Shown here piece after piece: positions 6,308-32,000 of a stretch of 32,000 nt of DNA. The translations under genes were made by a program, and so were the position numbers. Origin of the DNA: Chlamydiota bacterium (GTDB lineage: Bacteria > Auribacterota > JACPWU01). The DNA lies in the NCBI GenBank assembly GCA_016196885.1, contig JACPWU010000042.1, forward strand, positions 9,724 to 41,723, in the 5' to 3' direction. Below the pieces are notes generated by a model. The model was given only the letters and a program-made list of their open reading frames with translations, was not told where the DNA came from and searched no databases. The stretch's first letter is position 1; every line of letters starts with the position of its first letter.

Positions 6308-6387
6308 TTGTAGTCGCCCGATTCATCGGGCAGCCCCATGAATGGGGCGACTACAAACAGCGCCCCATGAATGGGGCGACTACAAAA
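6308..6387. repeat. REP-like element family A, copy 2, with a duplicated right half.
   Basis: ttgtagtcgcccgattcatcgggcagccccatgaatggggcgactacaa followed by a second gccccatgaatggggcgactacaaaa. Confidence 0.85.
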
Positions 6388-8206: not shown

Positions 8207-8545
8207 TTATAATACAAAAATAATTAAAACGGCCACTACGAATCCCAAAATAATCATGGTTTCAGGAATGGCTTCCAAAATAATGACAGATCCAACGAGT
8301 TCAGGTTTCTCAGCCAAAGCCCCAGCCGCAGCGGCACCAATTCTTGCCTGAGCGAGTCCTGAAGCCAAAGCGGAAAGTCCCACAGCGAGGGCTGCAGCAA
8401 TGGCCTTAAAACCGATGCTGTGGCCTTTTTCGCTTTTTTCAATGGTTGTATCAGAATGGGGGGCTGTCTCTTCAGCAAAAAGAGGGTGAGCAAAAATGGT
8501 GATATATAACCCCACCAATAAACTTCCCATGACGATCTTCTTCAT
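8207..8545 (-). CDS. atpK: A/V-type ATPase proteolipid subunit K (c). Single-hairpin type with an N-terminal signal-peptide-like extension.
   Basis: AAGGAG Shine-Dalgarno. The mature part GFKAIAAALAVGLSALASGLAQARIGAAAAGALAEKPELVGSVIILEAIPETMIILGFVVAVLIIF has two TM helices with a carboxylate in helix 2. It is preceded by MKKIVMGSLLVGLYITIFAHPLFAEE. Confidence 0.85.
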   Translation of the reverse strand: MKKIVMGSLLVGLYITIFAHPLFAEETAPHSDTTIEKSEKGHSIGFKAIAAALAVGLSALASGLAQARIGAAAAGALAEKPELVGSVIILEAIPETMIILGFVVAVLIIFVL

Positions 8546-8596
8546 AACGCATTCTCCTTTTTTTATTTTATATGGTTTAAATTAAAATAAAAACAA

Positions 8597-8765
8597 TTAA
8601 CCCCTCCAACTCCCCTTAAATAAGGGGAGAGAAAAACAACCCCTACTTAAAGGAGGAGAGTTCCCCTCTTAAATAAGAGGAGAAATGTAAAAAAACATTT
8701 ACTACCGCAGTCGGCTTTGCACTGCCACTGGCAGTGCAGCCTCCCTTGCTGGGTTAGGGGAGTTA
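8597..8765. repeat. Composite family-D palindromic element; its right end overlaps the atpI stop codon.
   Basis: ttaacccctccaactccccttaaataagggg...cccctcttaaataagagg...tgcactgccactggcagtgca...gggttaggggagtta. Its last ~110 bp is the reverse complement of 10647-10759. Confidence 0.8.
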
Positions 8766-10631
8766 TTTCAATTTTACTTTCTTCCTCGCCAGAGGTTGAT
8801 AAATGCTTCCTCCGGATTCGTAAAATTTAGTAAAAAATTCTACATAATGAAGACGGGCTGACTGAATGGTTGGGCTGAACGCCAAGGCCATGTTAATGAT
8901 ATGGAAGAGAATCGCAATAATCGCTCCCAATATCACATTTCCCACCAATCCTCCGAGCATGTTTCCGACAAAGGCTAAATAAGCACTGGCTACGCCGACC
9001 GCCATTAATCGGGCATAAGAGAGCATATTCCCGACAAATGAAAGAAGTTCCATAATCATCATGGGGCCTTTCATATAGATCAAAAGGGGAACGCCGATCA
9101 CCAGTGCAATGACAGATGGAATTTTTACCACAGTTGGAATTTGTTGGGCCAAAACACCGATCAAGACAAAAAGTCCGGCGAGAGAAACCAAAATGGCAAT
9201 CACTTCAATGATTTCATGGGTGTGGCGATGCCGAATGGATTGAATCAATTTAAGAATGAAGCCCAAGGTGACATGAAAAACGCCAATGCCGATCGCCAAA
9301 GCCAGAAGGGGGATGAGCGAATGCATGCGATCCCATTTGATGGTGGTGCCGCCCAGGTGCATGGTTAAGGGATGAAGAATACCTTTCTTCTCCAGAAAAT
9401 CTCCAAAAAATTCCCCAAACACAAAGCCGAAGAGAATGGTATAGAGAGAACAAACGATCACAATTTCCGAGACATGCTTTAAAAATTCCTGTTTTTTAGA
9501 GAGACGAAGCCAAAGTCCTAAGGCTAAAAAAACCAAGCCATACCCTATGTCTCCCATGATGAGGCCAAAGAAAATAGGAAAAAAGAAGGCGAAAAAGGGT
9601 GTGGGATCAATGCTTCCATACTTAGGCGGTCTCAAAACTTTAATGAAAAGCTCGTAAGGCTTAATCCAACGATGGTTGTCTAAAAGAACAGGTGCCTCGT
9701 GACATTCTCCGATTTCCAGATGGATTTTCCCCTGAAAGTGTTCGTTCAGTGTTTTTTGAAGTGAAGAAAGGGTTTTCTCAGGATTGTAGCCCGTGATGAC
9801 AAACGTCTTCTGAGTTTGTCCCAGCTCTCTCATCGCTTTTGAAGCGGCCATTTCATCTTCCAATTCAAGTTTGAGATGAAGGAGAGTGGAATAATTTTGC
9901 TGTGATAAATCTTTTAAGGACTGATCAACTTCTTTCAAGTCTTGAGGAATTTGCTTCAACTTTTCTTGCATCTTTTGAACAGCCTCTTGCAGGGGGTAAG
10001 ATGAAAGGCTGGATGGCATTTTGAGCTCATTTAATCCATATCTATTCAGAAGTGACTTTAAATTTTGATTGAGACTTTTAGGGTAAGCAAGTACCAGACC
10101 CAGTGTATCTTCATCTACAGATCGTTGGACCAAAATCACTTTTCCTGTAAAAGTTAGGGACAATTCTTTTTGTAAAGACTCTACCCGATTTCGATCCTTT
10201 TTTGAGGCAATGAGTCCCAGCGCTTCGAAGTGAGAACTTCCTTCTAGGGAAGCCAGAAGGGGGGATAAAATCTTGGTGGCTTCTCCATAGGCCTGAAGAA
10301 GGGCCCACTCATCTGAAAGCAATTGTCTCTTTTGAAGGAGATCCTGGCTTTTTTGAGAAATTTCATTGACCCAGGCTTCCATGTTATCGCCTAAAGGTGT
10401 TTCTGCAAGCTTGCCTAAAGGTTTGGGAAGGAGGGATAAAAGCGTCTCTAATTTTGAAATTAATTTTTCTTTTCCAGCAAACTCTTGAGAGGTCTTCTCG
10501 TTTAGACTCATTTTCTGAAGGCTGTCAGATTGGGTCAGATGAACGGTGCCTAATTTCTGAAGAAGATGGACAACCTCTTCAGAAAGATTCTTAGGCCCAA
10601 TGACCATTATTTTTTTCATCTTGGCGATCAT
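8763..10631 (-). CDS. atpI: A/V-type ATPase subunit I (a-subunit, stator/ion channel).
   Basis: 622 aa. N-terminal soluble coiled-coil half and C-terminal multi-TM half containing MLSYARLMAVGVAS (the conserved SYxRL arginine motif of a-subunits). Confidence 0.9.
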   Translation of the reverse strand: MIAKMKKIMVIGPKNLSEEVVHLLQKLGTVHLTQSDSLQKMSLNEKTSQEFAGKEKLISKLETLLSLLPKPLGKLAETPLGDNMEAWVNEISQKSQDLLQKRQLLSDEWALLQAYGEATKILSPLLASLEGSSHFEALGLIASKKDRNRVESLQKELSLTFTGKVILVQRSVDEDTLGLVLAYPKSLNQNLKSLLNRYGLNELKMPSSLSSYPLQEAVQKMQEKLKQIPQDLKEVDQSLKDLSQQNYSTLLHLKLELEDEMAASKAMRELGQTQKTFVITGYNPEKTLSSLQKTLNEHFQGKIHLEIGECHEAPVLLDNHRWIKPYELFIKVLRPPKYGSIDPTPFFAFFFPIFFGLIMGDIGYGLVFLALGLWLRLSKKQEFLKHVSEIVIVCSLYTILFGFVFGEFFGDFLEKKGILHPLTMHLGGTTIKWDRMHSLIPLLALAIGIGVFHVTLGFILKLIQSIRHRHTHEIIEVIAILVSLAGLFVLIGVLAQQIPTVVKIPSVIALVIGVPLLIYMKGPMMIMELLSFVGNMLSYARLMAVGVASAYLAFVGNMLGGLVGNVILGAIIAILFHIINMALAFSPTIQSARLHYVEFFTKFYESGGSIYQPLARKKVKLK

Positions 10632-12264: not shown

Positions 12265-12366
12265 TTAAACATTAGCGAGACGATGAAGGAGTTCAGAGAT
12301 AAAGGTCTGGTATCGAATACCCAGTTTCTTTGCTTTGTGCTTCAAGTTTTCTTGATCCGTCAAGCG
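12265..12366 (-). pseudogene. C-terminal remnant of a BrnA/CopG-like (ribbon-helix-helix) antitoxin gene, truncated at a family-A REP element.
   Basis: The minus-strand translation RLTDQENLKHKAKKLGIRYQTFISELLHRLANV* matches the remembered ...L..lKa.A...GipYQtlI...L pattern of BrnA-type antitoxins. There is no plausible full-length start, and no partner toxin is upstream. Confidence 0.4.
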
Positions 12367-12424
12367 TAGTCGCCCGATTTATCGGGCAATCCATGCATGG
12401 CCCCATAAATGGGGCGACTACAAA
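12366..12424. repeat. REP-like element family A, copy 3 (variant with a longer central spacer).
   Basis: gtagtcgcccgatttatcgggcaatccatgcatggccccataaatggggcgactacaaa. Confidence 0.8.
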
Positions 12425-17353: not shown

Positions 17354-18423
17354 GAAAGCGGCTTTGAAATTAAAAGAACTCCAGAGGTATCTTTGACTAC
17401 GAAAATGAGGTCACGAAATTAAAAGAATTAGAAGCGGTGATGGCCCAGAAGAATTTCTGGGATCAGGGTGAAAAGTCTAAAAAAGTCATTGAAGATTTAA
17501 AGGTTCTTAAAGCTAAATTAGAACCTGTTACTCATCTTGAGAAAAAATTCCACGACTTAAAGGCGATGTTAGATCTGGTCAGAGGAGAAGATTCAACCGA
17601 GGCTCAGGAATTGCTGAAAGAATTGGGAAGCGAGCTTTCTTCATTTGAAACGGACTTGGGAGATATTGAAATTCACAATCTTTTGGCCGGCGAATACGAT
17701 AAAAATTCTGCGATTTTGACCATTCATTCCGGGGCGGGTGGGACGGAATCTTGCGATTGGGCGGACATGCTCCTTCGCATGTATCGCCGATGGATGGAGC
17801 GCCATCACTTTAAGGCAGAGGTGGCGGACATTTTACCGGGGGAAGAGGCGGGTGTTAAAAGCGTGACTTTGCTGGTGGAAGGGGATTACGCCTACGGTTA
17901 TATGAAGGCGGAAAAGGGCGTTCATCGTTTGGTGCGGATCTCTCCCTTTGATTCTAATAAGAGGCGCCACACCTCTTTTGCGTCGGTGGATGTGATTCCT
18001 GAAATCACAGACGATATCCCGGTGGATATTGACGAAAAAGATTTAAAGATTGATACGTTTCGCGCGAGTGGGGCGGGTGGGCAGCATGTGAATAAGACAG
18101 ATTCAGCGGTTCGCATCACGCATCTTCCCACCGGTATTGTGGTCTCCTGCCAGAACGAACGCTCTCAGTACAAAAATAAATCCATGGCCATGAAAATTCT
18201 TCGGGCCAGGGTTTACGATGTAAAGCGTAAAGAACAGGAAGAAAAAATGGCCAAAGTCTATGGCCAAAAGTCAGACATTGCCTGGGGAAGCCAGATCCGC
18301 TCTTATGTCTTTCAGCCCTACACCTTGGTGAAGGATCATCGTACTTCGGTTGAAACTTCCAATGGGGATGCGGTGATGGATGGGGATATTGATTTATTTA
18401 TTCAAGCGTATTTGAGGCAGTAG
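17325..18423 (+). CDS. prfB: Peptide chain release factor 2, made by a programmed +1 frameshift (join 17325..17393, 17395..18423).
   Basis: ATG 17325 (AAGGAG upstream) gives MISEIKERIEKAALKLKELQRYL, then in-frame TGA at 17394. The +1 frame continues DYENEVTKLKELEAVMAQKNFWDQ... and contains the RF2 motifs SPF (RISPFDS) and GGQ (SGAGGQHVNKT). Confidence 0.93.
17385..17397 (+). promoter_or_regulatory. prfB autoregulatory +1 frameshift site.
   Basis: AGG TAT CTT TGA C: internal SD-like AGAGG, 3-nt spacer, slippery CTT, UGA stop followed by C. Almost the same as the E. coli site (AGG GGG TAT CTT TGA C). Confidence 0.9.
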
Positions 18424-18988: not shown

Positions 18989-19120
18989 CCCCTCAGGATA
19001 TCTTCTTATATATAAGAAGTCAACAGAAAAAAATTCGTTTGTAACGAGGGGCATGAGGTGATACATTCTAGCTTCTAACTTTTGAGATTCATGACCCACG
19101 ATTGATTGTCCACGGTTTTT

Positions 19121-19194
19121 CGGGCCGTAGCGTAGCCTGGTAGCGCACCTGAATGGGGTTCAGGGGGTCGGGAGTTCGATTCTCCCCGGCCCGA
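19121..19194 (+). tRNA. tRNA-Pro (anticodon GGG); CCA not encoded.
   Basis: Hand-folded cloverleaf: acceptor CGGGCCG/CGGCCCG, D arm GCGT-AGCCTGGTA-GCGC, anticodon arm CCTGA-AT GGG GT-TCAGG, variable loop GGGTC, T arm GGGAG-TTCGATT-CTCCC, discriminator A. Confidence 0.9.
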
Positions 19195-19271
19195 TGTTTT
19201 TCTTTGTTATGAAAGTGGATGATGGATCATGGATGATCGATGTTGGATTCCTTTCTCTCGTTCAAGTTTGT

Positions 19272-19434
19272 GTAGTCGCCCGATTCATCGGGCAGCCCCA
19301 TACTCAAGAGGCCATATTCCACCCTACAGGGGTGATTCTTCTGGTGATAGTTTCCAGCCTCTTTATCCTGAGTACTGTCAGAATTGTACGAATCAAACTT
19401 AATGAACTGACTTGTAAATGGGGCGACTACAAAA
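19272..19434. repeat. REP-like element family A, copy 4, split by an internal insertion of about 115 bp.
   Basis: Left half gtagtcgcccgattcatcgggcagccccat (19272-19301) and right half aaatggggcgactacaaaa (about 19416-19434) are separated by unrelated sequence. Next to it, cattgcacacgatgaccccc-aaaaa-gggtcattg (19458-19501) has an inverted relative at about 1272-1300. Confidence 0.7.
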
Positions 19435-19557: not shown

Positions 19558-19788
19558 ATGAAAATGAAGACATCTATCACACTCTCAGAAGATCTTTTGA
19601 AGTTGATTGATCATCTTACGGGCAAGTCCATGAATCGCTCTGAATTGATTGAGCTTGCCTTGCGGGAGTATCTTCTTCAGAGGGCTAAGAGAGTCAGGGA
19701 CTCAAAGGATTTAGAGCTGATCAATCGCCATGCGGATCGTTTGAATAAACAGGTTCAGGATACGCTTTCTTTTCAGATACCGATATGA
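19558..19788 (+). CDS. Ribbon-helix-helix (CopG/MazE-like) antitoxin.
   Basis: 76 aa. [39 protein letters not shown] = beta-strand/helix/helix RHH pattern. Its stop overlaps the toxin start (ATGA at 19785-19788). Confidence 0.7.
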
Positions 19789-20120
19789 GAAGAGGTGATT
19801 TTTACAGAGTCCATAAAGCCTCATCCCGGGACCCCAAAGATTCTCGCGTTTTTATGGTTGTCAGCCGTCAAGTCCTTATTGATTCGAATTTTTCAACGGT
19901 TGTTTGTGCCCCTATCTATAGCTCTCACGATGGATTGTCCACTGAAGTAGAGGTCGGGATTGAAGAGGGACTGAAACATGCGAGCAGTATTCGCTGTGAC
20001 GAATTGATGAGTATTCCTAAGTCTGTCTTGACCCACTTTGTGGGTGCTTTGCTTCCGCAGCGAATCAAAGAGTTGGATAAGGCGCTTGGATTTGCGCTTG
20101 AATTAGATAACGCTTCATAG
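19785..20120 (+). CDS. MazF/PemK-family toxin (mRNA interferase-like).
   Basis: 111 aa. MRRGDFYRV......[28 protein letters not shown]...[29 protein letters not shown] fits the rGD.y.v...P.vvvS....n....v.v.P.ts......ev.....GL...S.v..d.i.ti pattern. Confidence 0.7.
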
Positions 20121-21999: not shown

Positions 22000-22147
22000 G
22001 GGTTTTAGCTCCAATGAAATTAAATATCATAATCCATTATATCACAATGGGTTATGATCTTAGGCCTTTTTTGTCTGATAGCGTTTTGACGTTTAGGGGT
22101 GCGCTATTGTCTATTATAGGAAGATTCAAAATATCATAGGCAAAGGC

Positions 22148-25100
22148 ATGTTTTCTATCTATCATAAAATTATATCCATAAGATTTTGGGCTGCAGTCAT
22201 TTGCATCTCATTTTCCATTCAGAGTCTATTTTTGGATACGGGGTGGGCGCAGGAAAGAATGATGGATGTTGGAAGTTCGAAATTGGAGGGAAAAGCCGAG
22301 CGAACTGTTGTTCCATCTAACATCCAACCTCTATCCTCCAACGTCAATGTATCCACCAAACTTGGCGACATCCTTGAACGCCATCAAGGAAGCAGTGACA
22401 AACTCATCATCCACATCCAGGACGTGCACTGTCATTTTGAGGCGCAAAGTAACAGCGCCAAAATCATGAACGAGCTCATGAAAGAGCATGAAGCGCATGG
22501 GCTCAAAATGATCGGGCTTGAAGCCGCAGGGGGAGAGGTAGACACAAGCAAATTCACCGCCTTCCCAGATCCTGCAATCCGCAAAATGCTGGCCGAATAC
22601 CTCATGAAAGAAGGAAAAATCAGCGGCGCGGAATATTTATCGATCGTCAAAAACAAGCCCCTGCCACTTCAAGGGATAGAAAACATGAAAGAATACTTCA
22701 CGCATTTGGTTCAATTTGACAGAGGGCAAGAGCTTAAAAGTAAGGCAGAGCCTATTCTTCAAGGAATAGAGAAACGAATTGAAGGCTTAAAAGAGGAAAT
22801 CTACTCAAAAGAAGTGAAAGAGATTCTAAAAGAGAATGAAAGGTATGCGAGTGGGAAGATAGAACTTGGGGACTACGTAGAATATTTAATCTCGTGCTTC
22901 GCAAACCGTACATCGAACATCGAACATCGGACATCGAACCAAACAGAGTCCGAAGTACGAAGTCCGAAGTACGATGTACGAGTCACACATCCCAATATTG
23001 ATCTCATGCTCCAGATGAGTGAAATAGAAAAGAATTTAGATTTAAAAGCAGTCGAAGAAGAGCGAATCAAGGTGATAGAGGAATTAAGCAAGAGTCTTGT
23101 GAAAGAAGAAGTGATAGAGCTCATGACGAAGAGCTTATATTACCGCTTAGAAAAAATGGATGCGTGGGAATACTATGAATATTTAAAAAAGCTCATAGAG
23201 CGAAACACAGAGGGTCAAAGGTCAAGAGTCAAGGATCAGGAAAATAGGGACCAGAGTAACTCCCCTCTTAAGGTAAGAGGGGATGGGGGAGTTATGAAAG
23301 ACAAAGGAAGTTATATAAACCTCACACAATACATCCAAATGACCGAGCTCTACCACCAAATCGACAGCAACGTTCTCATGAAAGAATGCGAAGAATTAAG
23401 CCAAAGCGTCCTGGATCAAACGCTCAAGAGCCCAGAAGAAAAGGGGCTACACAAGATAGAAGAAGACTTTGCGCTCTTAAAGAACCTCATAGAGATAGAG
23501 CTCAAGAAAAGCCAATACAAAATATATTTAGAGAACAAAGAGAGGGTCACATTTAAGAGTATCGTGGAAAGGATCAATGAAATAGCGGTTCAAGAAAGTA
23601 AAGGAATTAACTCCCCTCGATCCCCTCTTAAAATAAGAGGGGAAGAGAAACAAGAGACGGAGGAGTACTCCCCTCTTAAAATGAGAGGGGCTGGGGGAGT
23701 TAATATTTTAGCCAAGACGCAAGACACCATCACCTATCTTGATCAACACCTCAAAGACACAGAAGCCTTTTACGAATATTCAGACACCCGAGAAAAGTCA
23801 CTGGTCGAGAACACGCTCACCAAGATGGAAGAAGAGAAGAGCCCGATTGCGATTCTCTACACAGGAGGTTTTCACACCGATGGCATGATGGAGCGACTAA
23901 AGAAGGAAGGGGCTTCTTATGTGGTGATAGCTCCCAGAATTACAGAATTCAAACTGAAGACCCCTTATTTATCTATTATTAAGAATGAGCCCAATGAACT
24001 AGAAAAAGCAATAAAGGGAATTCAAAAGAAAGAAGGATCAAATTTAGCTCCTTTAAAACATGGGGTAGATATAAACGCATTGAGGGGATTGATGGAGCGT
24101 CTCCCCCTCAATGATCCTCGTAAAGAGACCATTCAAAGAGTTATAGATGCAGATAAAACACTCGACCTCATGGCGATCTTCTTCGTAGAGCTTCTTTACG
24201 TGGCACAGTTGTGGGAAGCCCAAACCCCTGAAATTCATCTTCAGGAAATTTATGACTCAATGATGGAAAAATGGAAAGGACTTATAGGTGATGTTTTTGA
24301 AAAACAAATAGGAAAAAAAGTTATTTTTAATATTCAGGGAGCCAGTCGATCTAAGAATGGAGCGTTTTATATTCCCATCCGGATAGAAGGAGGGGAGGGG
24401 TTATATCTAAAACTGACTCAAGAAACAAAATTTGATGATGTGAAAGAATATCCAGAAAAATATTTGGTTACAGGACTACCTCACAGTGCTGCGAATGATT
24501 ATATTCAGAGGCATCTACCGGAAGATTTAAGAAAAAACAAAGACGAAATAAAAAACTATCCTCAACACAGTTATTTAAACCCTACTACGATAGGAAAAAC
24601 AGTGCAAGCCAGAGTGATTCCCATTCCAGGACTCTTTGAAGCGACGGGGCAATTGGGGCATATTGGACTAGGGCAGGTTTATGGAGAGCCTGTCATTTAT
24701 GTGGACGCTGATTATGATCCTCGGAAAGCAAAGACTGAGGGAGAGGATGCCGAGACAGTACTAAACCACGAAGCCTATGAAATTACAGGTTGGGAATCGA
24801 AGAGTATAGAGTTGGGTAAAACTCCATCTCAAATGAGAATGTGGATTCAAGATAGTAATCATTTTGAAGAAGCAAAGGCTTATGCAAAAAAACTTCACGA
24901 ATCTGCGCCGTCTGTAGATGAAATCATTAAAAAAAGAAGGGGGAGTCTGCAAGGCTGTATTGAACAGCACTTGGCAATGGCCCAAGAAATTTATGAGGAC
25001 GAGGAAGGGGATATTAATTTAGAGGCGGGAATGGATGAAAAAAATGGGGTCCTGTTCTTACAGGGGGAAGAGAGTGAAAGAGTTTTGCAAACAGAAGATC

Positions 25101-28100
25101 AATGGATTCCTTTGGATGGGTTGATTGGATATCTGAGGCAGGTGACAGGGGAGACAGGTGGGCGGGATTATGGAGAATGGTTTGATCATCCTGAAAGTTT
25201 AGCGCAGGCAGTTCAATCTTTTGGAGGAGAACCGGCTCGTGTGGGTCCTTTGATTCATCAGCAGTCGGACTATGAGAATCAGGCGGCGGTTGAGCTTGTG
25301 GCCAATGGGATTGACGCTATGCTGGCTCTGGCCCAAGGAAAATTTCCAATCGGTCGGTTTGGAGTGGGAGCCTTTCAGGTATTGCAGGAATTGGAACATG
25401 AAGATGATGAAGTGGTTTGGACCAGCTCTCGTGATGGCATAACGGCCTGGCGGGTTACGGTAAAGCTCAAGGACAATCGTTACGTCGTTCGTTTTAGCAA
25501 AGTTACTCAGGGTGTTAGCCAAGGAACAAAAGTTCAAGTGCATCATCAGCTCTATGCAAAAAAACAGCAGAAAGACCTTAAGGATTACTTGGAGGAAAAA
25601 CTGCGCTATAACAATAAAGTAAAGATCATGGTGAATGGAGTACATATTAATTCTCTAGAGGGTCTTACCTATCAAAATGGTGGGAGCCTCAACTATGAAA
25701 TGGCGGGCCAGATTAATATCCTCATCGATGAACATGGATACATTGTTACGGATGATGGAACGGGTATGGATGCTGAGGCCATTTATACGAAATTGCTGCT
25801 TCCCAGGGTGGGTCAAGGATATCGAGGAAAACCGGACGGTGAAAGTAGTGCAGACCATACCCGTCTCTTTTACCGCCAAAGTGAGAAGAGTCCAAGAGAG
25901 AAGACAAAGGTACGTGTAGGAATATTGGTCAGTGGCGTCCAGATCGAAGGATTTGAAATTGAAGGATATAACCTACCTCAAGATTTTGTTCTGGAGCTGC
26001 CCTATTGGACGCACTTGACGGAAGGCCGGAACAAAATCTCGCTGGATGAGTTGACGCTCGAGGCCTTGGAGATCACACTTGACAAGATCTTTCATGCACC
26101 GTCAAATCTTCAGCCTCAGCTTGTCAATGCCTATGCGCTTCTATTAAAACATTTTGCTGAGGACTCTGCGAGAAGAGACCTTGTAGAGGAATTAAAAATA
26201 ATATTTATTCAAAAAATTGGGAATTGGAAAAAGGCTCAACCAAACAAAATATGTCTTCCCAATGAAGAAGGGTTTATGGCCGTTCAGCTTCCAGAGCATT
26301 ATGAAGCAAATTATTTAGACACTTGGGCAAATCCTCTGAGGCCTCAAGAAATTGTGGGGGTCCAAAAGGTGAAAGAATGGAGAAGCAATCGAGGATATAG
26401 CTTATGGACCATTCCCATGGCGGATGCCAAAGACCCCTATTTTATCAGTGGAAAGTATATTTTTGTTGATGAGAGTCTATATAGAACGCAAGAAGATGTG
26501 CCTGCTGCTATAGATCTTGTCGTGAATCCCGTAGATGTGGATTATGGCATTCCAGAAGAACCCTATGGAAGTTTGGAGCCTGCGGAAGAATCTATAAAAA
26601 TAAAGACTCTCGCAGAGAAGACAAAATCAGAAGTGATGGCTCCAGATCTTCAAGAAAAATGGGATGCACTTCTAGGTTTATCCTCCAGCCAAAAAAGAGA
26701 GGTAAGAGAGTTCATTCGACACTATGGCCCCGAAAATCATGAGGCTGTTATGAAATGGCTCGAAAGACTTCAATCATTTTCCAATCTTGACGGATGGACG
26801 GAGGTCTTTTCAAAAATATTGCCTGGAAACATGAGAATGGATTCTAAAAAAAGAGAAGGGCAGGGATTTTACTTTATCGGAACTCCATTCCAAATGGGAG
26901 AAAAGTGGTGTGTCGTGGTATGCCAAAAAAAGGAAGAGCCTCGTAAACTTGCCGAGATCAATCCTGCCAATGGTTACATCACAGTCCCGAAAGGAGCAAC
27001 GGGATTCTACAATATCAGGACACCTTTTAGAGCCGGAGAAAATTGGTTTGTAACGGTAGAACGAGAAAAAGACGGTCCTCAATCCTTTGCGAAAGTAGAT
27101 TTGGCAACGGGCTTAGTCGAGCTTTCTCGGGGAGCAAATGGGTTTTTATCTATTGGAAAACCGGTTCAGATAGGACAAAAGTGGTTTGTCATAACGGGTG
27201 GTCAACACGGTTACATTGCATCCCTTGCCAGGTTTGATCCTGAAACTGGGATTGTCAAAGTTCCTGATGGAGCAAATTCTTTTAATGGCATGTCAGAGCC
27301 CTTTCAAATGGGAAATCAATGGTTTGTAAATGTCACGATTGTGAATTTACAAAGTTTGCATGCCATTGCTCGTATTGATGAAGAAAGAGGAATCGTAGCG
27401 GTACCTGATGAATTAGGCAATTTTGACATAGTTGAAACCCCGTTTGAAATTGGGAATAAATGGCATGTGATTGTAAAAAAAGAGGGTTTTTATACCCTAG
27501 CTAAAGTGGATCCTGGCAGCGGTCAAATCACGGTTCCTGAGGATGCCAATGGGTATTACTATGTCAATGGACCTATTCGAATTGGTAAAAATTGGTTTGT
27601 CCAAGTTCAGAAAGAAAAGGATGGACCGCATACACTGGCGAAAATAGATTTTCGGGATGGGTCAATAATATTACCCAAAAGGGAAACGACGAATTTTCGT
27701 TACATTGACAGTCCATTCCAAATAGGAGAGAAATGGTTTGTCGGGGTAGGAGGCCATCCAAGTAATTTAGGGTCTGCTTTTGCTTCTGTCGATCCTGAGA
27801 CAGGAGAAATATCATTACCCTCTTCATGGGTAGAAGCAATAGATCATTTTGGTTCTATACTGGATCAGAAAACTTGCATTCAAATAGGAGAAAAGTGGTA
27901 TGCGAAAGTTGGGGAAGGAGTTAGAGGCCCCTGGACACTTGCCGAAGTAGATCCCAATACGGGTCGCATCACGATCCCTGGGCATGCGCAGTGGTTTTCT
28001 ATTATTCGAGTGCCCTTTCAGTTAGGCACAAAATGGGTTGTGGAGGTTTCTGAAAAATTAACAGATCCGCATGCATTTGCTGAGGTTGATCCTGAAAATG

Positions 28101-31100
28101 GGCTTATGAGAATTCCATATGGAGCAAGGTATTTAAAGTCTATAAATGGCCCCTTTAGCCTTGTCGAAAAACAGTATCTCCATGCGAAAGAAAATTCTTA
28201 TGATGATTCTGAATTTATGATTTCTATTTCCGCAACCCCGTTCAGGCAAGGAGAGTGGGGAGAGTTAGAGTTTAGCACGGTAGAAAAATCTCTTCGGGAG
28301 TTGTACATTCTGTTTCATGATGTCCCCGGGTCTCGCGAAAGGTATTTAGAAAATCTATTTTATCTACCCGCCAGGTTTTCCGATCTTTTTGAGAGCGATT
28401 TCTTTCATAGACTCTTGGCCTTATTCCCGACGGATCTACTACAGCATTTGAGTCCCAAAACCGCTGGGGTTCTTACAGGAGTTTTAAAAACGATGACAAC
28501 CTCACGTGTTCAAGGATCGTTTCTTTCCTTTTTTGATCGTGTCGATCTGGGCAGCCTAAATGAGACGGCGCTTGAGGCTGTGATTCATCGTTGGGTGAGC
28601 ATCTGGAATATTGTGGGATCAAATGTGAATGCAAGGAATAGCCTATTGGAGGGGCTGGAGCGTTATCCAGATTTTCTATCCTCTGAATTTGATGTGCAAG
28701 GAGTCCAAGATCTTTCTCTTATGCTGTATATGTGGATACTAAGAGGGGAAGAAGAAGGTATGGGGGAAAAAAAGAGCCCGCATTTGACACGTAGAGATAT
28801 CACTAGATCTATAACTGATATTCCTCTTGCTAAAATTATTCAAGCTTATCGGGAAAATCCCTCAGGAGTTCGTGGCATTCAATCTCTGGCAGATTATGAG
28901 CAATATCTTCAAGCTGTTCAGAAAAAGAAAACGGATGCGGTAGAAAGTGAAATTGCTTCCGCTCAAGAAGGGCAAGATACCACCGATCAACTTTATTTAA
29001 GAGAAAATGTTCAAAACGCTCGAGATGCCATGGATGAAAAAGAGATAGAGGGCCCTGTTGAAGTGGATAGCTATATTGAAAAAGGGACTGAAAATTGGGT
29101 GGTCTCAGTGGAAGACAAGGCGGGAACGGATATTGGGACATTTTTGAGTGATTTTTTTGTGCCCGATCTTACGACAAAGAAGGGAAAGGGGCTTGCGGGG
29201 ATTATGGGTCAAGGGGTTTACACCAACTTCCTTGACTTTGATGAACTGCGAATCAAGACAGGAACAGGGAAGAACGGAAAGGCCTATTACGCCGTTCTTC
29301 ATAGGGATAGATCGGGAAAGATTATTTTAAAAAGCCTTGAAGAGGTCAATGATTCTTATCAAGGGACGAGGATAGAACGGGTCAAACGACAGTGGAATAT
29401 TGAAGAATCTGCTGTTTGGAATGCATTAACCGCTTCGAATCTCAGGCGATATGTGGGAGGTGTGAGTGATCGAGAAATTCTTTTTAGAGGGAATCGTATG
29501 AATGATCCACTGACTGTCTTAAGCGAAGTGAAGACAAAATGGGGGACCTTATCCATCAAGCTAAGCAAGGCAGGGTATCGCCGTGTGACTCAAAAGGGCC
29601 TCTACCTTCAAACTCCGAATGAAGAATATCTGGCCCTTGTTCCAGAAAAATACAAGAAAATGCTCTTGGAAAGGGGGCTCAATATTGATTTACCTCCAGA
29701 ACTTTCACTCACCCGTTCCAGAACGACCCTGGCTAAAAAAGGGAAAAACAAGAAGGCCATTCAGCAAGCCGTTGCCAAGGGCGTACTAGAAGCAATCGTC
29801 AGGCTTTATCTCGAAGAAGGAGTCATCCCGCCGGGCCTTTCGGAAGACTATTTTGATTCTCCTGTGATTCATGGAGGAGGGCTCACAAATTTTGAACGAT
29901 ACGCCCGTGAGGCCGTTGGAACTTTTGGAGAGGGAAAAGAAGTGAAGGGGGATGCAAATTTTATCAATCAAGGAAAATGGGCCCAAGTCAAGTTTGAAAA
30001 ATATCTTATTCAAGAAAAAGATTCGGACGAATTAAAAGAAAAGAAGAGCCGATCCTTGGCTTATCTCATGAGTCTTATTGAGGTGGAGCAGGGAGGGGAG
30101 ACGACTTCTCTTGAAAAAATGCGGCAGACATTTTTAAATGCGATGAGAGGTAAACAAAGTGTGGAGTCTCTAAAATCAAAACATCGGGGTCTAGAGAAAT
30201 ACCTAAAGCAATCAGAAGAACTTGTGAATAGAAAAGTGGCTGCGATCGACACTCCGCGAAGAGATATTGATTTGAAGAAAGAAGAACCCTATCCGGGGGT
30301 AAGAAAATTTGTGGAATTGACACAAATTGGATTACAAGCCCTAGGTCGCAGCGACATTCAGGTAGGAGTTTACGAACGGGAAGAGTCTCGATTAGCGGAC
30401 TTTGGAGATCATCTCCTGATGTGGAATTTACTTAGGATAAAGACTGAGCTTGCGGCTTTAAATAACATTCTTTCGGGCGAAGCTAGCGCAATAGAAAAGA
30501 ACAAGTTCTTTAGGTGGTTTCTACATTACCTTACCCATGAACTCTCCCATTTTGCTGATCAAGGAAAGGCCTCACATCAGAAAGATGACTCTCTTGTGGG
30601 CCTCTTGGCATGGAATCAGAAAGAACTATTGAAGAAATTCCTAAATGCCAAGTTGTCATGGGATGAGATAGAGAGAAGACTTAATTCCGGGGACACAGTA
30701 TTTAATTCTGCCACCTCAGAAGCTGGAATGGCCCCGCTGATGAGTCTTGTACTGAATTGGTTTGGGATTCCACGTGAAAAGCAAGCGGGGTATGAGCAGG
30801 TGGGTTATTTAGCAGCATTTATCATCATTGTTGCAAGTATAGTTGCTTCGACACCATTATTGATGCAAGGCTTTTTGGGGATGATGGGGGTGGCGGGAAT
30901 TTTTATTTTGATTCATCCCTTGAGTTATTTCGTCATACGAATTTTTGAAAAATTATTGGGCTGTCAGCTGATGCCTCAAGGGCCGCCTCTCAAGGGGATG
31001 GTTCTGGGCGCAATGAAAGTGGCCTTGGCGAACACCCTTTCCCTCATTCCTGCTTACCTTCTCTACATGAATTCTCATCCAGCTCTTGCGATCGTTGCGC

Positions 31101-32000
31101 TTCTTTTTTACATTCCTGCGAGTAGATACCATCACGAGATGAATTTGGGGTTTTTAAAGAAGGCAAGATTAGAAAATTACGATGCAACGGCAGCGAGTCT
31201 CTTTTCAACGATGGCGAGCCTGTTTTCAAGAACCTTAAACTCTTCAAAACTAACTTTGCCCTTCAGATCATTTTTGATCAATCTTACATCCGATTCGATG
31301 CGATTATTACTTTCTTCGAGTTTGGCGATCCTTGCTTCGATGCGCAAATTGCTTTCTTCAAGCTTGGCGATTCTTCCCTCGATCTTGGTGAATCTCTCCT
31401 TGGTTTCATACCGAAAGCTCAGCAGGCTATTGGAAAGAGCCTCGAATCTTTTTTCAGATTTTTCTGACTCTTCATCAACTTTGTTGCGAAGGGCAACGAC
31501 GTTTTCTCCAACAGCCTTAAACTGGCTTCGCATTTCTTCGATAAGAACGGCATTGTACCGCTGGATATCGTCTGTCGGAAGAGGTTTTGGAGATTTCTTT
31601 TCTTTCATGAAAGGAATCTTACATCCTGAGTCAAATCGAGTCAATTGGAATAATGGATCAGCAGATGTCGTGACCCCATTGCCAAAACGAACTCCCTCCG
31701 CCATGAAAGAATATAGCGGAGAGGATAAAGATGTTGCAGCGTTTCATGAGCGCTATAAGACTGAAGCTGGGTCTATTGGGGGAGAGCAGCTGGAGAGAAT
31801 TCGTACAAATGTGATTCGTGCCTGGGGAGACCTTTCTCGAGAAGGCCTTAAAGCCCTGAGGGAATTGGGGCTTACGCGGGATGGGGTCATTGAGCAATTT
31901 CGGAGAATAGATAATAGAACTGAGATAAAAATTGGGAAAGCGAACTATGCCGTGAACATTCACTGGCGGGAGGGCCCTTATGAATTAAAGGGAGTCAAAC
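22148..32000 (+). CDS. Giant multidomain protein, 3' end outside the window (at least 3,284 codons with no stop). Coding is confident for 22148 to about 31140; the stretch 31177-31700 conflicts with a minus-strand ORF.
   Basis: Hand translation of frame 2 finds no TAA/TAG/TGA from 22097 to 32000. The translation is protein-like and purine-rich throughout 22148-31140. Motifs: IIHIQDVHCHFEAQ / IGLEAAGGE / YTGGFHTDG; ELVANGIDA + IGRFGVGAF; about 10 x (PFQIGEKWFV...VDPETG.I.VP); LRENVQNARDA + VEDKAGTDIG + GIMGQGVY; THELSHF; C-terminal TM helices. Confidence 0.85.
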   Translation, partial: MFSIYHKIISIRFWAAVICISFSIQSLFLDTGWAQERMMDVGSSKLEGKAERTVVPSNIQPLSSNVNVSTKLGDILERHQGSSDKLIIHIQDVHCHFEAQSNSAKIMNELMKEHEAHGLKMIGLEAAGGEVDTSKFTAFPDPAIRKMLAEYLMKEGKISGAEYLSIVKNKPLPLQGIENMKEYFTHLVQFDRGQELKSKAEPILQGIEKRIEGLKEEIYSKEVKEILKENERYASGKIELGDYVEYLISCFANRTSNIEHRTSNQTESEVRSPKYDVRVTHPNIDLMLQMSEIEKNLDLKAVEEERIKVIEELSKSLVKEEVIELMTKSLYYRLEKMDAWEYYEYLKKLIERNTEGQRSRVKDQENRDQSNSPLKVRGDGGVMKDKGSYINLTQYIQMTELYHQIDSNVLMKECEELSQSVLDQTLKSPEEKGLHKIEEDFALLKNLIEIELKKSQYKIYLENKERVTFKSIVERINEIAVQESKGINSPRSPLKIRGEEKQETEEYSPLKMRGAGGVNILAKTQDTITYLDQHLKDTEAFYEYSDTREKSLVENTLTKMEEEKSPIAILYTGGFHTDGMMERLKKEGASYVVIAPRITEFKLKTPYLSIIKNEPNELEKAIKGIQKKEGSNLAPLKHGVDINALRGLMERLPLNDPRKETIQRVIDADKTLDLMAIFFVELLYVAQLWEAQTPEIHLQEIYDSMMEKWKGLIGDVFEKQIGKKVIFNIQGASRSKNGAFYIPIRIEGGEGLYLKLTQETKFDDVKEYPEKYLVTGLPHSAANDYIQRHLPEDLRKNKDEIKNYPQHSYLNPTTIGKTVQARVIPIPGLFEATGQLGHIGLGQVYGEPVIYVDADYDPRKAKTEGEDAETVLNHEAYEITGWESKSIELGKTPSQMRMWIQDSNHFEEAKAYAKKLHESAPSVDEIIKKRRGSLQGCIEQHLAMAQEIYEDEEGDINLEAGMDEKNGVLFLQGEESERVLQTEDQWIPLDGLIGYLRQVTGETGGRDYGEWFDHPESLAQAVQSFGGEPARVGPLIHQQSDYENQAAVELVANGIDAMLALAQGKFPIGRFGVGAFQVLQELEHEDDEVVWTSSRDGITAWRVTVKLKDNRYVVRFSKVTQGVSQGTKVQVHHQLYAKKQQKDLKDYLEEKLRYNNKVKIMVNGVHINSLEGLTYQNGGSLNYEMAGQINILIDEHGYIVTDDGTGMDAEAIYTKLLLPRVGQGYRGKPDGESSADHTRLFYRQSEKSPREKTKVRVGILVSGVQIEGFEIEGYNLPQDFVLELPYWTHLTEGRNKISLDELTLEALEITLDKIFHAPSNLQPQLVNAYALLLKHFAEDSARRDLVEELKIIFIQKIGNWKKAQPNKICLPNEEGFMAVQLPEHYEANYLDTWANPLRPQEIVGVQKVKEWRSNRGYSLWTIPMADAKDPYFISGKYIFVDESLYRTQEDVPAAIDLVVNPVDVDYGIPEEPYGSLEPAEESIKIKTLAEKTKSEVMAPDLQEKWDALLGLSSSQKREVREFIRHYGPENHEAVMKWLERLQSFSNLDGWTEVFSKILPGNMRMDSKKREGQGFYFIGTPFQMGEKWCVVVCQKKEEPRKLAEINPANGYITVPKGATGFYNIRTPFRAGENWFVTVEREKDGPQSFAKVDLATGLVELSRGANGFLSIGKPVQIGQKWFVITGGQHGYIASLARFDPETGIVKVPDGANSFNGMSEPFQMGNQWFVNVTIVNLQSLHAIARIDEERGIVAVPDELGNFDIVETPFEIGNKWHVIVKKEGFYTLAKVDPGSGQITVPEDANGYYYVNGPIRIGKNWFVQVQKEKDGPHTLAKIDFRDGSIILPKRETTNFRYIDSPFQIGEKWFVGVGGHPSNLGSAFASVDPETGEISLPSSWVEAIDHFGSILDQKTCIQIGEKWYAKVGEGVRGPWTLAEVDPNTGRITIPGHAQWFSIIRVPFQLGTKWVVEVSEKLTDPHAFAEVDPENGLMRIPYGARYLKSINGPFSLVEKQYLHAKENSYDDSEFMISISATPFRQGEWGELEFSTVEKSLRELYILFHDVPGSRERYLENLFYLPARFSDLFESDFFHRLLALFPTDLLQHLSPKTAGVLTGVLKTMTTSRVQGSFLSFFDRVDLGSLNETALEAVIHRWVSIWNIVGSNVNARNSLLEGLERYPDFLSSEFDVQGVQDLSLMLYMWILRGEEEGMGEKKSPHLTRRDITRSITDIPLAKIIQAYRENPSGVRGIQSLADYEQYLQAVQKKKTDAVESEIASAQEGQDTTDQLYLRENVQNARDAMDEKEIEGPVEVDSYIEKGTENWVVSVEDKAGTDIGTFLSDFFVPDLTTKKGKGLAGIMGQGVYTNFLDFDELRIKTGTGKNGKAYYAVLHRDRSGKIILKSLEEVNDSYQGTRIERVKRQWNIEESAVWNALTASNLRRYVGGVSDREILFRGNRMNDPLTVLSEVKTKWGTLSIKLSKAGYRRVTQKGLYLQTPNEEYLALVPEKYKKMLLERGLNIDLPPELSLTRSRTTLAKKGKNKKAIQQAVAKGVLEAIVRLYLEEGVIPPGLSEDYFDSPVIHGGGLTNFERYAREAVGTFGEGKEVKGDANFINQGKWAQVKFEKYLIQEKDSDELKEKKSRSLAYLMSLIEVEQGGETTSLEKMRQTFLNAMRGKQSVESLKSKHRGLEKYLKQSEELVNRKVAAIDTPRRDIDLKKEEPYPGVRKFVELTQIGLQALGRSDIQVGVYEREESRLADFGDHLLMWNLLRIKTELAALNNILSGEASAIEKNKFFRWFLHYLTHELSHFADQGKASHQKDDSLVGLLAWNQKELLKKFLNAKLSWDEIERRLNSGDTVFNSATSEAGMAPLMSLVLNWFGIPREKQAGYEQVGYLAAFIIIVASIVASTPLLMQGFLGMMGVAGIFILIHPLSYFVIRIFEKLLGCQLMPQGPPLKGMVLGAMKVALANTLSLIPAYLLYMNSHPALAIVALLFYIPASRYHHEMNLGFLKKARLENYDATAASLFSTMASLFSRTLNSSKLTLPFRSFLINLTSDSMRLLLSSSLAILASMRKLLSSSLAILPSILVNLSLVSYRKLSRLLERASNLFSDFSDSSSTLLRRATTFSPTALNWLRISSIRTALYRWISSVGRGFGDFFSFMKGILHPESNRVNWNNGSADVVTPLPKRTPSAMKEYSGEDKDVAAFHERYKTEAGSIGGEQLERIRTNVIRAWGDLSREGLKALRELGLTRDGVIEQFRRIDNRTEIKIGKANYAVNIHWREGPYELKGVK
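22907..22980. repeat. Palindromic/tandem-repeat element (family F, CGTACATCG...CGATGTACG) lying in frame inside the giant ORF.
   Basis: cgtacatcgaacatcgaacatcggacatcgaac...gtccgaagtacgaagtccgaagtacgatgtacg. 9-bp perfect terminal inverted repeat, with internal 7-nt (catcgaa x4) and 14-nt (gtccgaagtacgaa x2) direct repeats. Translated as RTSNIEHRTSNQTESEVRSPKYDVR. A related cgatgtacgaagttcgacgtacg occurs intergenically at about 1893-1917. Confidence 0.7.
23257..23294. repeat. Minimal family-D palindromic element in frame inside the giant ORF.
   Basis: TAACTCCCCTCTTAAGGTAAGAGGGGATGGGGGAGTTA. Termini TAACTCCCC/GGGGAGTTA with inner stem CCCCTCTTA/TAAGAGGGG. Translated as NSPLKVRGDGGV. Confidence 0.8.
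23608..23702. repeat. Family-D palindromic element (double inner hairpin) in frame inside the giant ORF.
   Basis: taactcccctcgatcccctcttaaaataagaggggaagagaaacaagagacggaggagtactcccctcttaaaatgagaggggctgggggagtta. Translated as NSPRSPLKIRGEEKQETEEYSPLKMRGAGGV. Confidence 0.8.
26864..28275 (+). repeat. About 10 (+1 degenerate) tandem coding repeats of ~46 aa (~138 nt) within the giant ORF; beta-propeller-like.
   Basis: The core recurs at roughly 26885, 27023, 27161, 27299, 27440, 27572, 27714, 27876, 28012 and 28151: PFQMGEKWCV, PFRAGENWFV, PVQIGQKWFV, PFQMGNQWFV, PFEIGNKWHV, PIRIGKNWFV, PFQIGEKWFV, CIQIGEKWYA, PFQLGTKWVV, PFSLVEKQYL. Each is followed by ..LA(K/E)VDP.TG.I.VP.GA. Confidence 0.85.
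31177..31608 (-). CDS. Coiled-coil protein (hypothetical), antisense to the open plus-strand frame. The start could also be the ATG at 31704.
   Basis: MKEKKSPKPLPTDDIQRYNAVLIEEMRSQFKAVGENVVALRNKVDEESEKSEKRFEALSNS...IEGRIAKLEESNLRIEARIAKLEESNNRIESDVRLIKNDLKGKVSFEEFKVLENRLAIVEKRLAAVAS. Clean heptad-like periodicity, TAA stop at 31177-31179, and a purine-rich minus strand here, unlike the flanks. It cannot coexist with a conventional reading of the giant ORF. Confidence 0.5.
   Translation of the reverse strand: MKEKKSPKPLPTDDIQRYNAVLIEEMRSQFKAVGENVVALRNKVDEESEKSEKRFEALSNSLLSFRYETKERFTKIEGRIAKLEESNLRIEARIAKLEESNNRIESDVRLIKNDLKGKVSFEEFKVLENRLAIVEKRLAAVAS

Follow-up and report, generated by a model that had tools for sequence, protein, structure and literature searches.

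A small coiled-coil gene nested antisense in a giant open reading frame that probably reads through it

The giant frame and the small gene on its opposite strand

We analysed a stretch of 32,000 nucleotides (nt) from the contig JACPWU010000042.1 (positions 9,724 to 41,723 of the forward strand; assembly GCA_016196885.1, deposited as Chlamydiota bacterium); this whole stretch is called the window here, and positions are counted from its first letter. One frame of its plus strand (codon starts 3n+2) has no stop codon from 22097 to 31999, that is in 3301 codons, and continues past the window end. Near that end a small gene encoding a coiled-coil protein is situated on the minus strand; all 432 nt of its open reading frame (ORF) are inside the open plus frame, and the third codon positions of both frames coincide. 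As the comparisons described below show, the window carries a real small gene nested antisense in a continuous giant ORF, with the giant frame being in phase with coding sequence on both sides of the small gene both here and at a second locus.

The giant ORF is likely to start with the ATG at 22148, from which a hydrophobic N-terminus resembling a signal peptide is read. Its product is a multi-module protein with hydropathy peaks, representing transmembrane (TM) helices, at about 30809-30937 and 31058-31114. Codon usage was scanned with log-odds scores, trained on the window's other genes only, in 300-nt windows along the whole 9.9-kb frame. There were only three 300-nt windows, with starts at 31100, 31250 and 31400, in which a minus frame outscored the giant frame (+0.14 to +0.37 for the minus frame, -0.06 to +0.04 for the giant frame); the strand flip in 31100-31700 is unique within the 9.9-kb frame. 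In this region, downstream of the TM helices, the plus-strand translation of 31157-31612 consists of 21% Ser and 19% Leu and includes the peptide ASNLFSDFSDSSSTLLR; the plus strand is pyrimidine-rich, with both AT skew and GC skew negative across 31100-31550. The coding score of the plus frame recovers from about 31690. The initial annotation of this DNA had described a giant frame staying open through an antisense coiled-coil ORF, a Ser/Leu-rich stretch and a flip in strand composition, and had taken this composition for the mark of a minus-strand gene; the analysis bears out this description in every part.

At 23100-23800 the giant protein carries short repeated peptides (SPLKVRGDGGV, SPLKIRGEEKQ, SPLKMRGAGGV), with about ten GxKWFV-type repeats in a run farther along, and two NAxDA motifs resembling those of GHKL ATPases; no Pfam model attained its cut-off in the region of these repeats and motifs.

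The minus-strand ORF ends with TAA and has either 143 amino acids (aa), if read from the inner ATG at 31608, or 175 aa, if extended up to 31704. It encodes a heptad protein. The duplicated RIAKLEESN unit, which had been noticed in the initial annotation together with the limits of the ORF and its TAA, was located in a 42-nt tandem duplication (Table 1). An exhaustive HMMER search of 1.84 billion representatives with this ORF produced 357 clusters at E<=1e-3 (11 at <=1e-10), nearly all made of proteins of 70-180 aa, and in the opposite direction 14 members of the family used in tblastn matched the window at 31183-31608. The family is characterized by a basic N-terminus, the motif V.LE..RsQF.vFGEG, a variable heptad run and the C-terminal motif IE.D.R.IKN..K.KV..EEF..LE.R...LEK. 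In the window protein the C-terminal motif is intact, while the N-terminal one reads AVLIEEMRSQFKAVGEN, with FGEG changed to VGEN. None of the curated Pfam and NCBIfam models scored above the cut-off for the minus ORF (generic coiled-coil matches were seen below the cut-off only), and the gene-call index searched held no record of it. The family is widespread, but undescribed and uncharacterised. AlphaFold2 modelled the small protein as a long helix (residues 12-118) and a second helix (residues 121-142) with a predicted local distance difference test score (pLDDT) of 88.5; a Foldseek search of the PDB with this model produced no match.

Standalone members of the family were found in unrelated contexts on the contigs L003, L008, L009, L010 and L012. 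The member on L008 follows a DUF433 gene; the one on L012 (P0004; locus 8365-10306) stands directly after two bactofilin genes of the same strand, which might point to a function of the family in the cytoskeleton or as a scaffold. The closest protein match, and the only close one, is P0001 (111 aa), encoded on the contig L001 of a metagenome-assembled genome (MAG) named 'Chlamydiae bacterium'. The P0001 gene is convergent to a giant gene of 3108 aa and is located 50 nt beyond the stop codon of the latter. A further copy of the cassette (the small gene with its promoter) is situated inside this giant gene, where it is likewise preceded by the TM module and is antisense and open. We refer to these two as the terminal and the internal L001 copy.

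A sigma-70-type promoter is predicted upstream of the small gene (Table 1), and both L001 copies have TTGACT-N17-TAAGAT/TAACAT at the matching place. A similar arrangement, TTGACA-16-TAGCTG-6-ATG, precedes the homologue on L003. The mRNA would be leaderless or near-leaderless, since the -10 box sits 7 nt before the ATG. On the other side of the gene, no terminator-like fold was detected in the minus-strand RNA of the 3′ flank, spacer 1 (z = -0.4 to -0.8). A terminator-like hairpin at 31694-31723 was taken as a chance feature; it is not conserved in L001. The ends of the gene show some further sequence coincidences. An exact 12-nt direct repeat, AATCTTACATCC, occurs at 31280-31291 (within the small gene, in its SDVRLI codons) and at 31615-31626, where it overlaps the -10 box; it is not shared by L001 and could be due to chance (about 0.08 expected). 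A perfect 10-nt inverted repeat is present at 31600-31609 and 31702-31711 (TTCTTTCATG / CATGAAAGAA). Both the small gene and the next plus-strand module read MKE... from a CATG core, and a plus-strand ATG at 31607 overlaps the start codon of the small gene.

To decide which frame is under selection, the window was compared with the internal L001 copy. As the third codon positions of the frames coincide, dN/dS by frame is weak here, and conditional synonymy was used instead. Substitutions in the small gene are distributed 5/6/34 over the plus codon positions 1/2/3. Counted by codon, the minus frame has 31 synonymous and 7 non-synonymous changes, and the plus frame has 23 and 16, respectively; single substitutions are synonymous in 34 cases out of 45 in the minus frame and in 27 out of 45 in the plus frame. 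Among the 27 plus-synonymous changes 26 are also minus-synonymous, with about 21 expected, while among the 34 minus-synonymous changes 26 are plus-synonymous, with about 28 expected, i.e. there is no excess. The minus-frame protein is thus under purifying selection, and the plus-frame peptide shows no amino-acid constraint of its own. The initial annotation had proposed to compare relatives in this respect.

Length changes are consistent with this. The internal L001 copy has 63 extra nt (three heptads) at the site of the duplication. Each length change among the copies, of 42 or 63 nt, comes in units of 21 nt, which leaves the heptads in register. Taken together, the existence of the family, the codon score of the small gene (+0.26 to +0.37), the excess of minus-synonymous changes, the register-keeping indels and the conserved promoter lead us to regard 31177-31608 as a genuine gene.

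Table 1. Features of the giant ORF and of the nested gene (window coordinates)
Feature	Position	Strand	Remarks
Giant ORF	22148..31999	+	Part of the 3301-codon open frame; codon-usage score positive except in 31100-31700; N-terminal module homologous to the L001 giant gene
Transmembrane module	30683..31156	+	Last good plus-strand coding before the flip; 92% aa identity to the L001 giant protein
Spacer 1 (3′ flank of small gene)	31141..31176		Conserved in each of the three cassette copies; giant frame open; contains a T5 run and an out-of-frame TAA
Small coiled-coil gene, 143 aa	31177..31608	-	Start codon 31608-31606, TAA 31179-31177; wholly nested antisense in the giant ORF
Tandem 42-nt duplication (RIAKLEESN unit)	31294..31377	-	31294-31335 / 31336-31377; two heptads each
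Spacer 2	31609..31689	+	Window-specific junction between cassette and next module; open in the giant frame only
Putative promoter of small gene	31616..31644	-	-35 TTGACT 31644-31639, 17-nt spacer, -10 TAAGAT 31621-31616, then 7 nt to ATG
Next module of giant protein (PSAMKEYSGEDKD...)	31690..31999	+	Codon score +0.22; homology to an earlier stretch within the L001 giant protein

The L001 locus and other assemblies

The window region 30682-31612 aligns with L001 13732-12652 at 84-94% identity; within the TM module the substitutions are distributed 8/4/24 by codon position. Homology to the internal L001 copy weakens beyond 31612. The next module (31690-32000) aligns at 91% identity with L001 17371-17061, a different and earlier part of the L001 gene; the identity is about 70% over 31690-31783 and rises to 99.5% over 31784-32000 (L001 17277-17061). 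The two loci thus have the upstream junction in common and differ in the downstream junction. In spacer 2 of the window, the giant frame has no stop codon, while the other two plus frames have two and one. The initial annotation had placed the return of normal protein at the ATG at 31703: plus-strand coding does return, from about 31690, although this ATG corresponds to an internal Met in L001 and the homology begins upstream of it.

The codon scan of L001 showed two flips. One is at the internal copy (13263-12663); the other begins at about 10413 and extends across the terminal copy and a decayed relic past the stop codon. Past the internal copy, the L001 giant ORF continues for about 750 further well-scoring codons. 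The terminal copy presents a different picture: the small gene P0001 and its promoter are intact, while the relic of the giant frame has acquired a TAA, a +1 frameshift and a TAG, i.e. three disruptions in about 1.1 kb. Only these three copies of the cassette were found, all in the same orientation relative to the giant gene; searches of genome contigs, viral contigs, and phage and plasmid collections produced no match.

The L001-type passage is seen in other assemblies as well. The protein P0159 of a sibling MAG has the same antisense passage as L001, and two Logan contigs, L006 and L007 (each from a single run), match L001 with 100% identity over the junction that links the internal small gene to the next module.

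Past P0001, the second membrane module of the giant gene occurs once more at L001 9180-9960 (minus orientation; ...SLRFSGASLKPILKS...VGIMLVLLIVAF...), but in a decayed form that has a frameshift and a TAG; this is the remnant of a duplicated tail. The source annotation gives no gene there; in the Logan contigs L006 and L007 a 154-aa ORF is called at this spot. A minus-frame tblastx match upstream of the small gene in L001 raised the possibility of another antisense gene; this candidate was rejected, as the giant frame has the better codon score there.

The window ends with ...ELKGVK, and the sibling MAG assembly split the L001-type gene at this very point (P0160 ends with ...ELKGVK, P0159 starts with MNIHWREGPYELKGVK). 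An exact repeat shared by the two giant genes is located here and probably marks the end of the window's contig. Genes of the window type and of the L001 type co-occur in the run SRR12113387, and the window and L001 have the same GC content. The two sequences may come from the same genome or from very close genomes, perhaps being paralogues in one genome; for this reason we speak of two loci and not of two species.

Some other features of the two contigs may be mentioned. A 21-mer resembling repetitive extragenic palindromic (REP) elements, GTAGTCGCCC[G/C]ATT[T/C]AT[C/G]GGG, has eight intergenic occurrences in the window, mostly as inverted pairs (1328-1372, 6310-6383, 12366-12421 and 19272-19292), with none expected by chance; in L001 it occurs once (19855-19875), with 3 mismatches, upstream of the giant gene, which is another hint that both sequences belong to one genome or to very close ones. 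A pair of a ribbon-helix-helix (RHH) antitoxin and a PemK toxin at 19558-20120 adjoins a tRNA-Pro gene (19120-19195), and the PemK protein is also encoded on Logan contigs of the runs SRR12113387 and SRR12113416.

Probable read-through of the nested gene and its alternatives

On balance we favour, as reasonably likely, the reading in which one continuous giant ORF runs along the antisense strand of a small gene that is older and still functional. The giant frame across the small gene would then be a new, overprinted frame, adding to the giant protein a Ser/Leu/Arg-rich, partly hydrophobic linker of ~150 residues between the membrane module and the next module. It would likely have originated by fusion across a convergent neighbour, through loss of a stop codon or recombination among mosaic paralogous giant genes. 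The small gene would continue to be served by its own sigma-70-type promoter, with a leaderless mRNA translated into the 143-aa coiled-coil protein. Ribosomes would probably read through the segment, with both products being made, and convergent transcription would couple the expression of the two genes. Real read-through is favoured because good coding sequence flanks the segment on either side in the same phase, and because this situation is repeated in L001 with a different downstream module; it is favoured also because the terminal L001 copy, situated past the stop codon, has a decayed plus frame along with an intact small gene. Of the three explanations offered in the initial annotation, the antisense-derived linker is thus the best fit, with the same open, in-phase passage in L001 and P0159 and the junction present in two Logan contigs.

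Several considerations weigh against this reading. The coding evidence for the plus frame consists of openness and phase at two loci only, while the minus frame has homologues and signs of selection; the Ser/Leu-rich plus peptide appears to be a passenger, with no amino-acid constraint beyond staying open. A protein word search with the plus-frame stretch, and with the span from the TM module to the next module, produced no match, though the same search also missed the L001 giant protein and apparently does not reach proteins of this kind. AlphaFold2 gave the plus-frame segment a pLDDT of 43, which is uninformative. The two loci are not independent: they inherited the junction of TM module and small gene from a common ancestor, and identical stretches there are as long as 134 nt. 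Continuity of the downstream junction was verified by other assemblies for the L001 type only; the window type rests on one assembly.

The openness itself is a further consideration of this kind. A stop codon in the giant frame requires NNY|TAN or NNT|CAN on the minus strand, i.e. a position beside Tyr, His or Gln codons. The small protein is nearly devoid of these residues, and its gene has only four such stop-risk sites. With third positions coinciding and the protein so poor in Tyr, His and Gln, the giant frame is hard to stop across the small gene. Ordinary genes of the window behave differently: none of their 659 windows of 143 codons is open in the same antisense frame. We estimated the probability that the frame is open either from genome codon usage or by permuting the gene's own codons; the respective values were 0.085 and 0.39 for the window copy, 0.16 and 0.17 for the internal L001 copy, and 0.013 and 0.015 for P0001. 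Of the five standalone homologues examined, the one on L008 is open across the whole gene and the one on L010 across nearly all of it; no such openness was seen for those on L003, L009 and L012. That the frame is open over the small gene is, therefore, largely a property of the coiled-coil protein and unsurprising (p about 0.1-0.4). Less likely to arise by chance are the absence of stops from the 35 spacer codons (p about 0.11) and the agreement in phase with the downstream module (1/3); the statistical case rests on spacers and phase, roughly 1-5% per locus.

Given the unconstrained plus peptide, the main rival explanation is that the fusion is real in the DNA but accidental and non-functional: the frame is poor in stops, the spacers and the phase came about by chance, the product is useless or harmful and decaying, and the downstream modules are maybe unneeded. 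The probabilities of openness (0.085-0.39) and the open homologues on L008 and L010 agree with such an accident, as does the lack of amino-acid constraint in the plus frame; the terminal L001 copy demonstrates that tails of this kind decay, and the giant genes are mosaic, with sharp jumps of identity. Still, two different downstream junctions would both have to be in phase and free of stops by chance. Coding scores downstream are good at both loci, the L001 gene has about 750 further intact codons, and the unjoined copy has decayed quickly (the three disruptions in ~1.1 kb) while the embedded copies have not. We consider an accidental fusion unlikely, though deserving to be kept in mind.

One could speculate further that in this lineage the cassette recurs in giant genes as a joint maintained by selection. 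It would offer a patch of homology for swapping downstream modules between paralogous giant genes, its inward-facing promoter would let both genes throttle each other via convergent transcription, and the 430-bp stretch would be translated on both strands by design. This extension of the read-through reading seems to us rather doubtful.

An artefact of assembly or sequencing could imitate a continuous frame in two ways: a missing base in the T5 run might hide the stop codon of the giant gene, or co-occurring paralogues or strains might have been assembled into a chimeric contig where their sequences are identical. Identical stretches of 134 and 215 nt do exist, both gene types are present in one run (SRR12113387), the window end coincides with the P0160/P0159 break of the sibling assembly, and the Logan contig L006 breaks at the edge of a repeat. 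A hidden stop followed by two more genes had been suggested in the initial annotation on the basis of the T5 run and the out-of-frame TAA; both are present, one base to the right of the positions then given (T5 at 31152-31156, TAA at 31156-31158), and the minus-strand gene is real, but the hidden stop finds no support, as the paralogue reads TTGGAATACTTAAAA, has no T run and is still open. As to a chimera, numerous differences from either L001 copy make window 30683-31783 a copy of its own; over the small gene and its spacers (31120-31612) a single 63-nt indel is the only indel between the copies, so a switch of path would leave the phase unchanged; the junction at 31613-31783 falls within window-specific sequence; and the L001-type passage is seen in three further assemblies (P0159, L006 and L007). 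An artefact is, in our estimate, improbable.

The remaining explanations fare worse. Within a gene, the segment stands out as a separate block that codes in the opposite direction, as would be expected of an invertible cassette, an intragenic switch of which the window would show one of two states. No inverted repeats flank 31140-31650, however (borders 31140-31180 versus 31600-31650 were compared), in agreement with the initial annotation, which had raised the idea of an inverted cassette and had itself seen no convincing ones. The sole perfect inverted repeat, of 10 nt, brackets 92 nt; the three copies share one orientation relative to the giant gene; and a flip would place the TAA of the small gene on the coding strand of the giant gene. 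Inversion is thus very improbable. So is termination of the giant gene by a programmed +1 slip on UUU UUA into UAA, with three genes expressed separately. The T5 run is indeed followed by a TAA in the +1 frame, and the same genome has a classic programmed +1 site in prfB, the gene of release factor 2 (RF2) (CTT TGA C, 17391-17397, just upstream of the RF2 ORF 17437-18423). In the paralogue, though, the slippery run is missing (TAC TTA AAA; L001 reads GAATACTTAAAA), the A site is occupied neither by a stop nor by an evidently slow codon, the Rfam search returned no element or structure, and the downstream ATG is internal in L001.

Finally, the idea that the minus ORF is merely the shadow of a real Ser/Leu-rich plus-strand coding segment is hardly credible: with coinciding third positions either strand could mimic constraint (hence the 5/6/34 pattern on plus positions), but this is contradicted by the 357 clusters of standalone proteins, by the codon score preferring the minus frame, by the minus-synonymous excess, the register-keeping indels and the conserved promoter, and by P0001 being intact where the plus frame has decayed.

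An in-frame mobile insert was also considered. The palindromic elements of Rickettsia are an example of such inserts; they are palindromic or repeat-bounded, with target duplications and many copies. This candidate was rejected, as the cassette has no terminal repeats, exists in three copies only, and shows no target duplications or marks of mobile elements at its borders.

Implications and comparison with known systems

If both strands are translated, the locus would represent a clear case of bacterial overprinting with a known direction, the small gene being ancient and the linker of the giant protein a newcomer. The locus also suggests that a giant gene can expand across a convergent neighbour and leave the latter intact. 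For genome annotation the lesson is that gene callers keep the giant ORF and drop the real small gene, and for statistics that an open antisense frame is weak evidence if the protein on the opposite strand lacks Tyr, His and Gln.

Shadow ORFs are long antisense ORFs that arise from the codon content of a real gene; they are bounded by stop codons and are ignored in annotation. The plus-strand stretch resembles them in its antisense-like codon usage and in having no constraint of its own, and standalone homologues of the small gene show the same open antisense frame. Its openness is, like that of a shadow ORF, explained by the content of the opposite gene. Unlike shadow ORFs, it is not bounded by stops; it is in phase with coding modules on both sides, to which it is joined in the window, and it would be translated within the giant protein.

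Overprinting, as well as fusion by loss of a stop codon, is a general concept best known from viruses. The likeness is in a new frame laid over an existing gene and in an ORF extended into its neighbour. Here, by contrast, the extension crosses a convergent gene on the opposite strand and joins a further module, and three paralogous copies present both the fused state and the unfused, decayed one. Intragenic invertons also have a block of reversed polarity within a coding region, but they are defined by flanking inverted repeats, which were looked for in the window and were not found.

Very long multi-module membrane-anchored ORFs of uncultured bacteria, similar to the one described here, are known as giant genes of Omnitrophota and their relatives (bioRxiv 10.1101/2023.11.21.568195; 10.64898/2026.06.07.730766); a text search of these two papers returned nothing relevant on antisense or nested genes.

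Embedded antisense overlapping genes have been described in Pseudomonas aeruginosa, with ORFs of 957 nt and 1536 nt (PMC8850804), and in Escherichia coli O157:H7 (ano/ECs2385; PMC5960689). As in our case, a complete ORF is nested opposite a longer ORF and carries signs of selection. Expression was measured for those genes, while the locus described here is known from sequence alone. The order of events also differs: in P. aeruginosa and E. coli O157:H7 the nested ORF is a newcomer in an old host gene, whereas here the nested gene, a member of a widespread family, is the old one and the stretch of the host gene that covers it is new.

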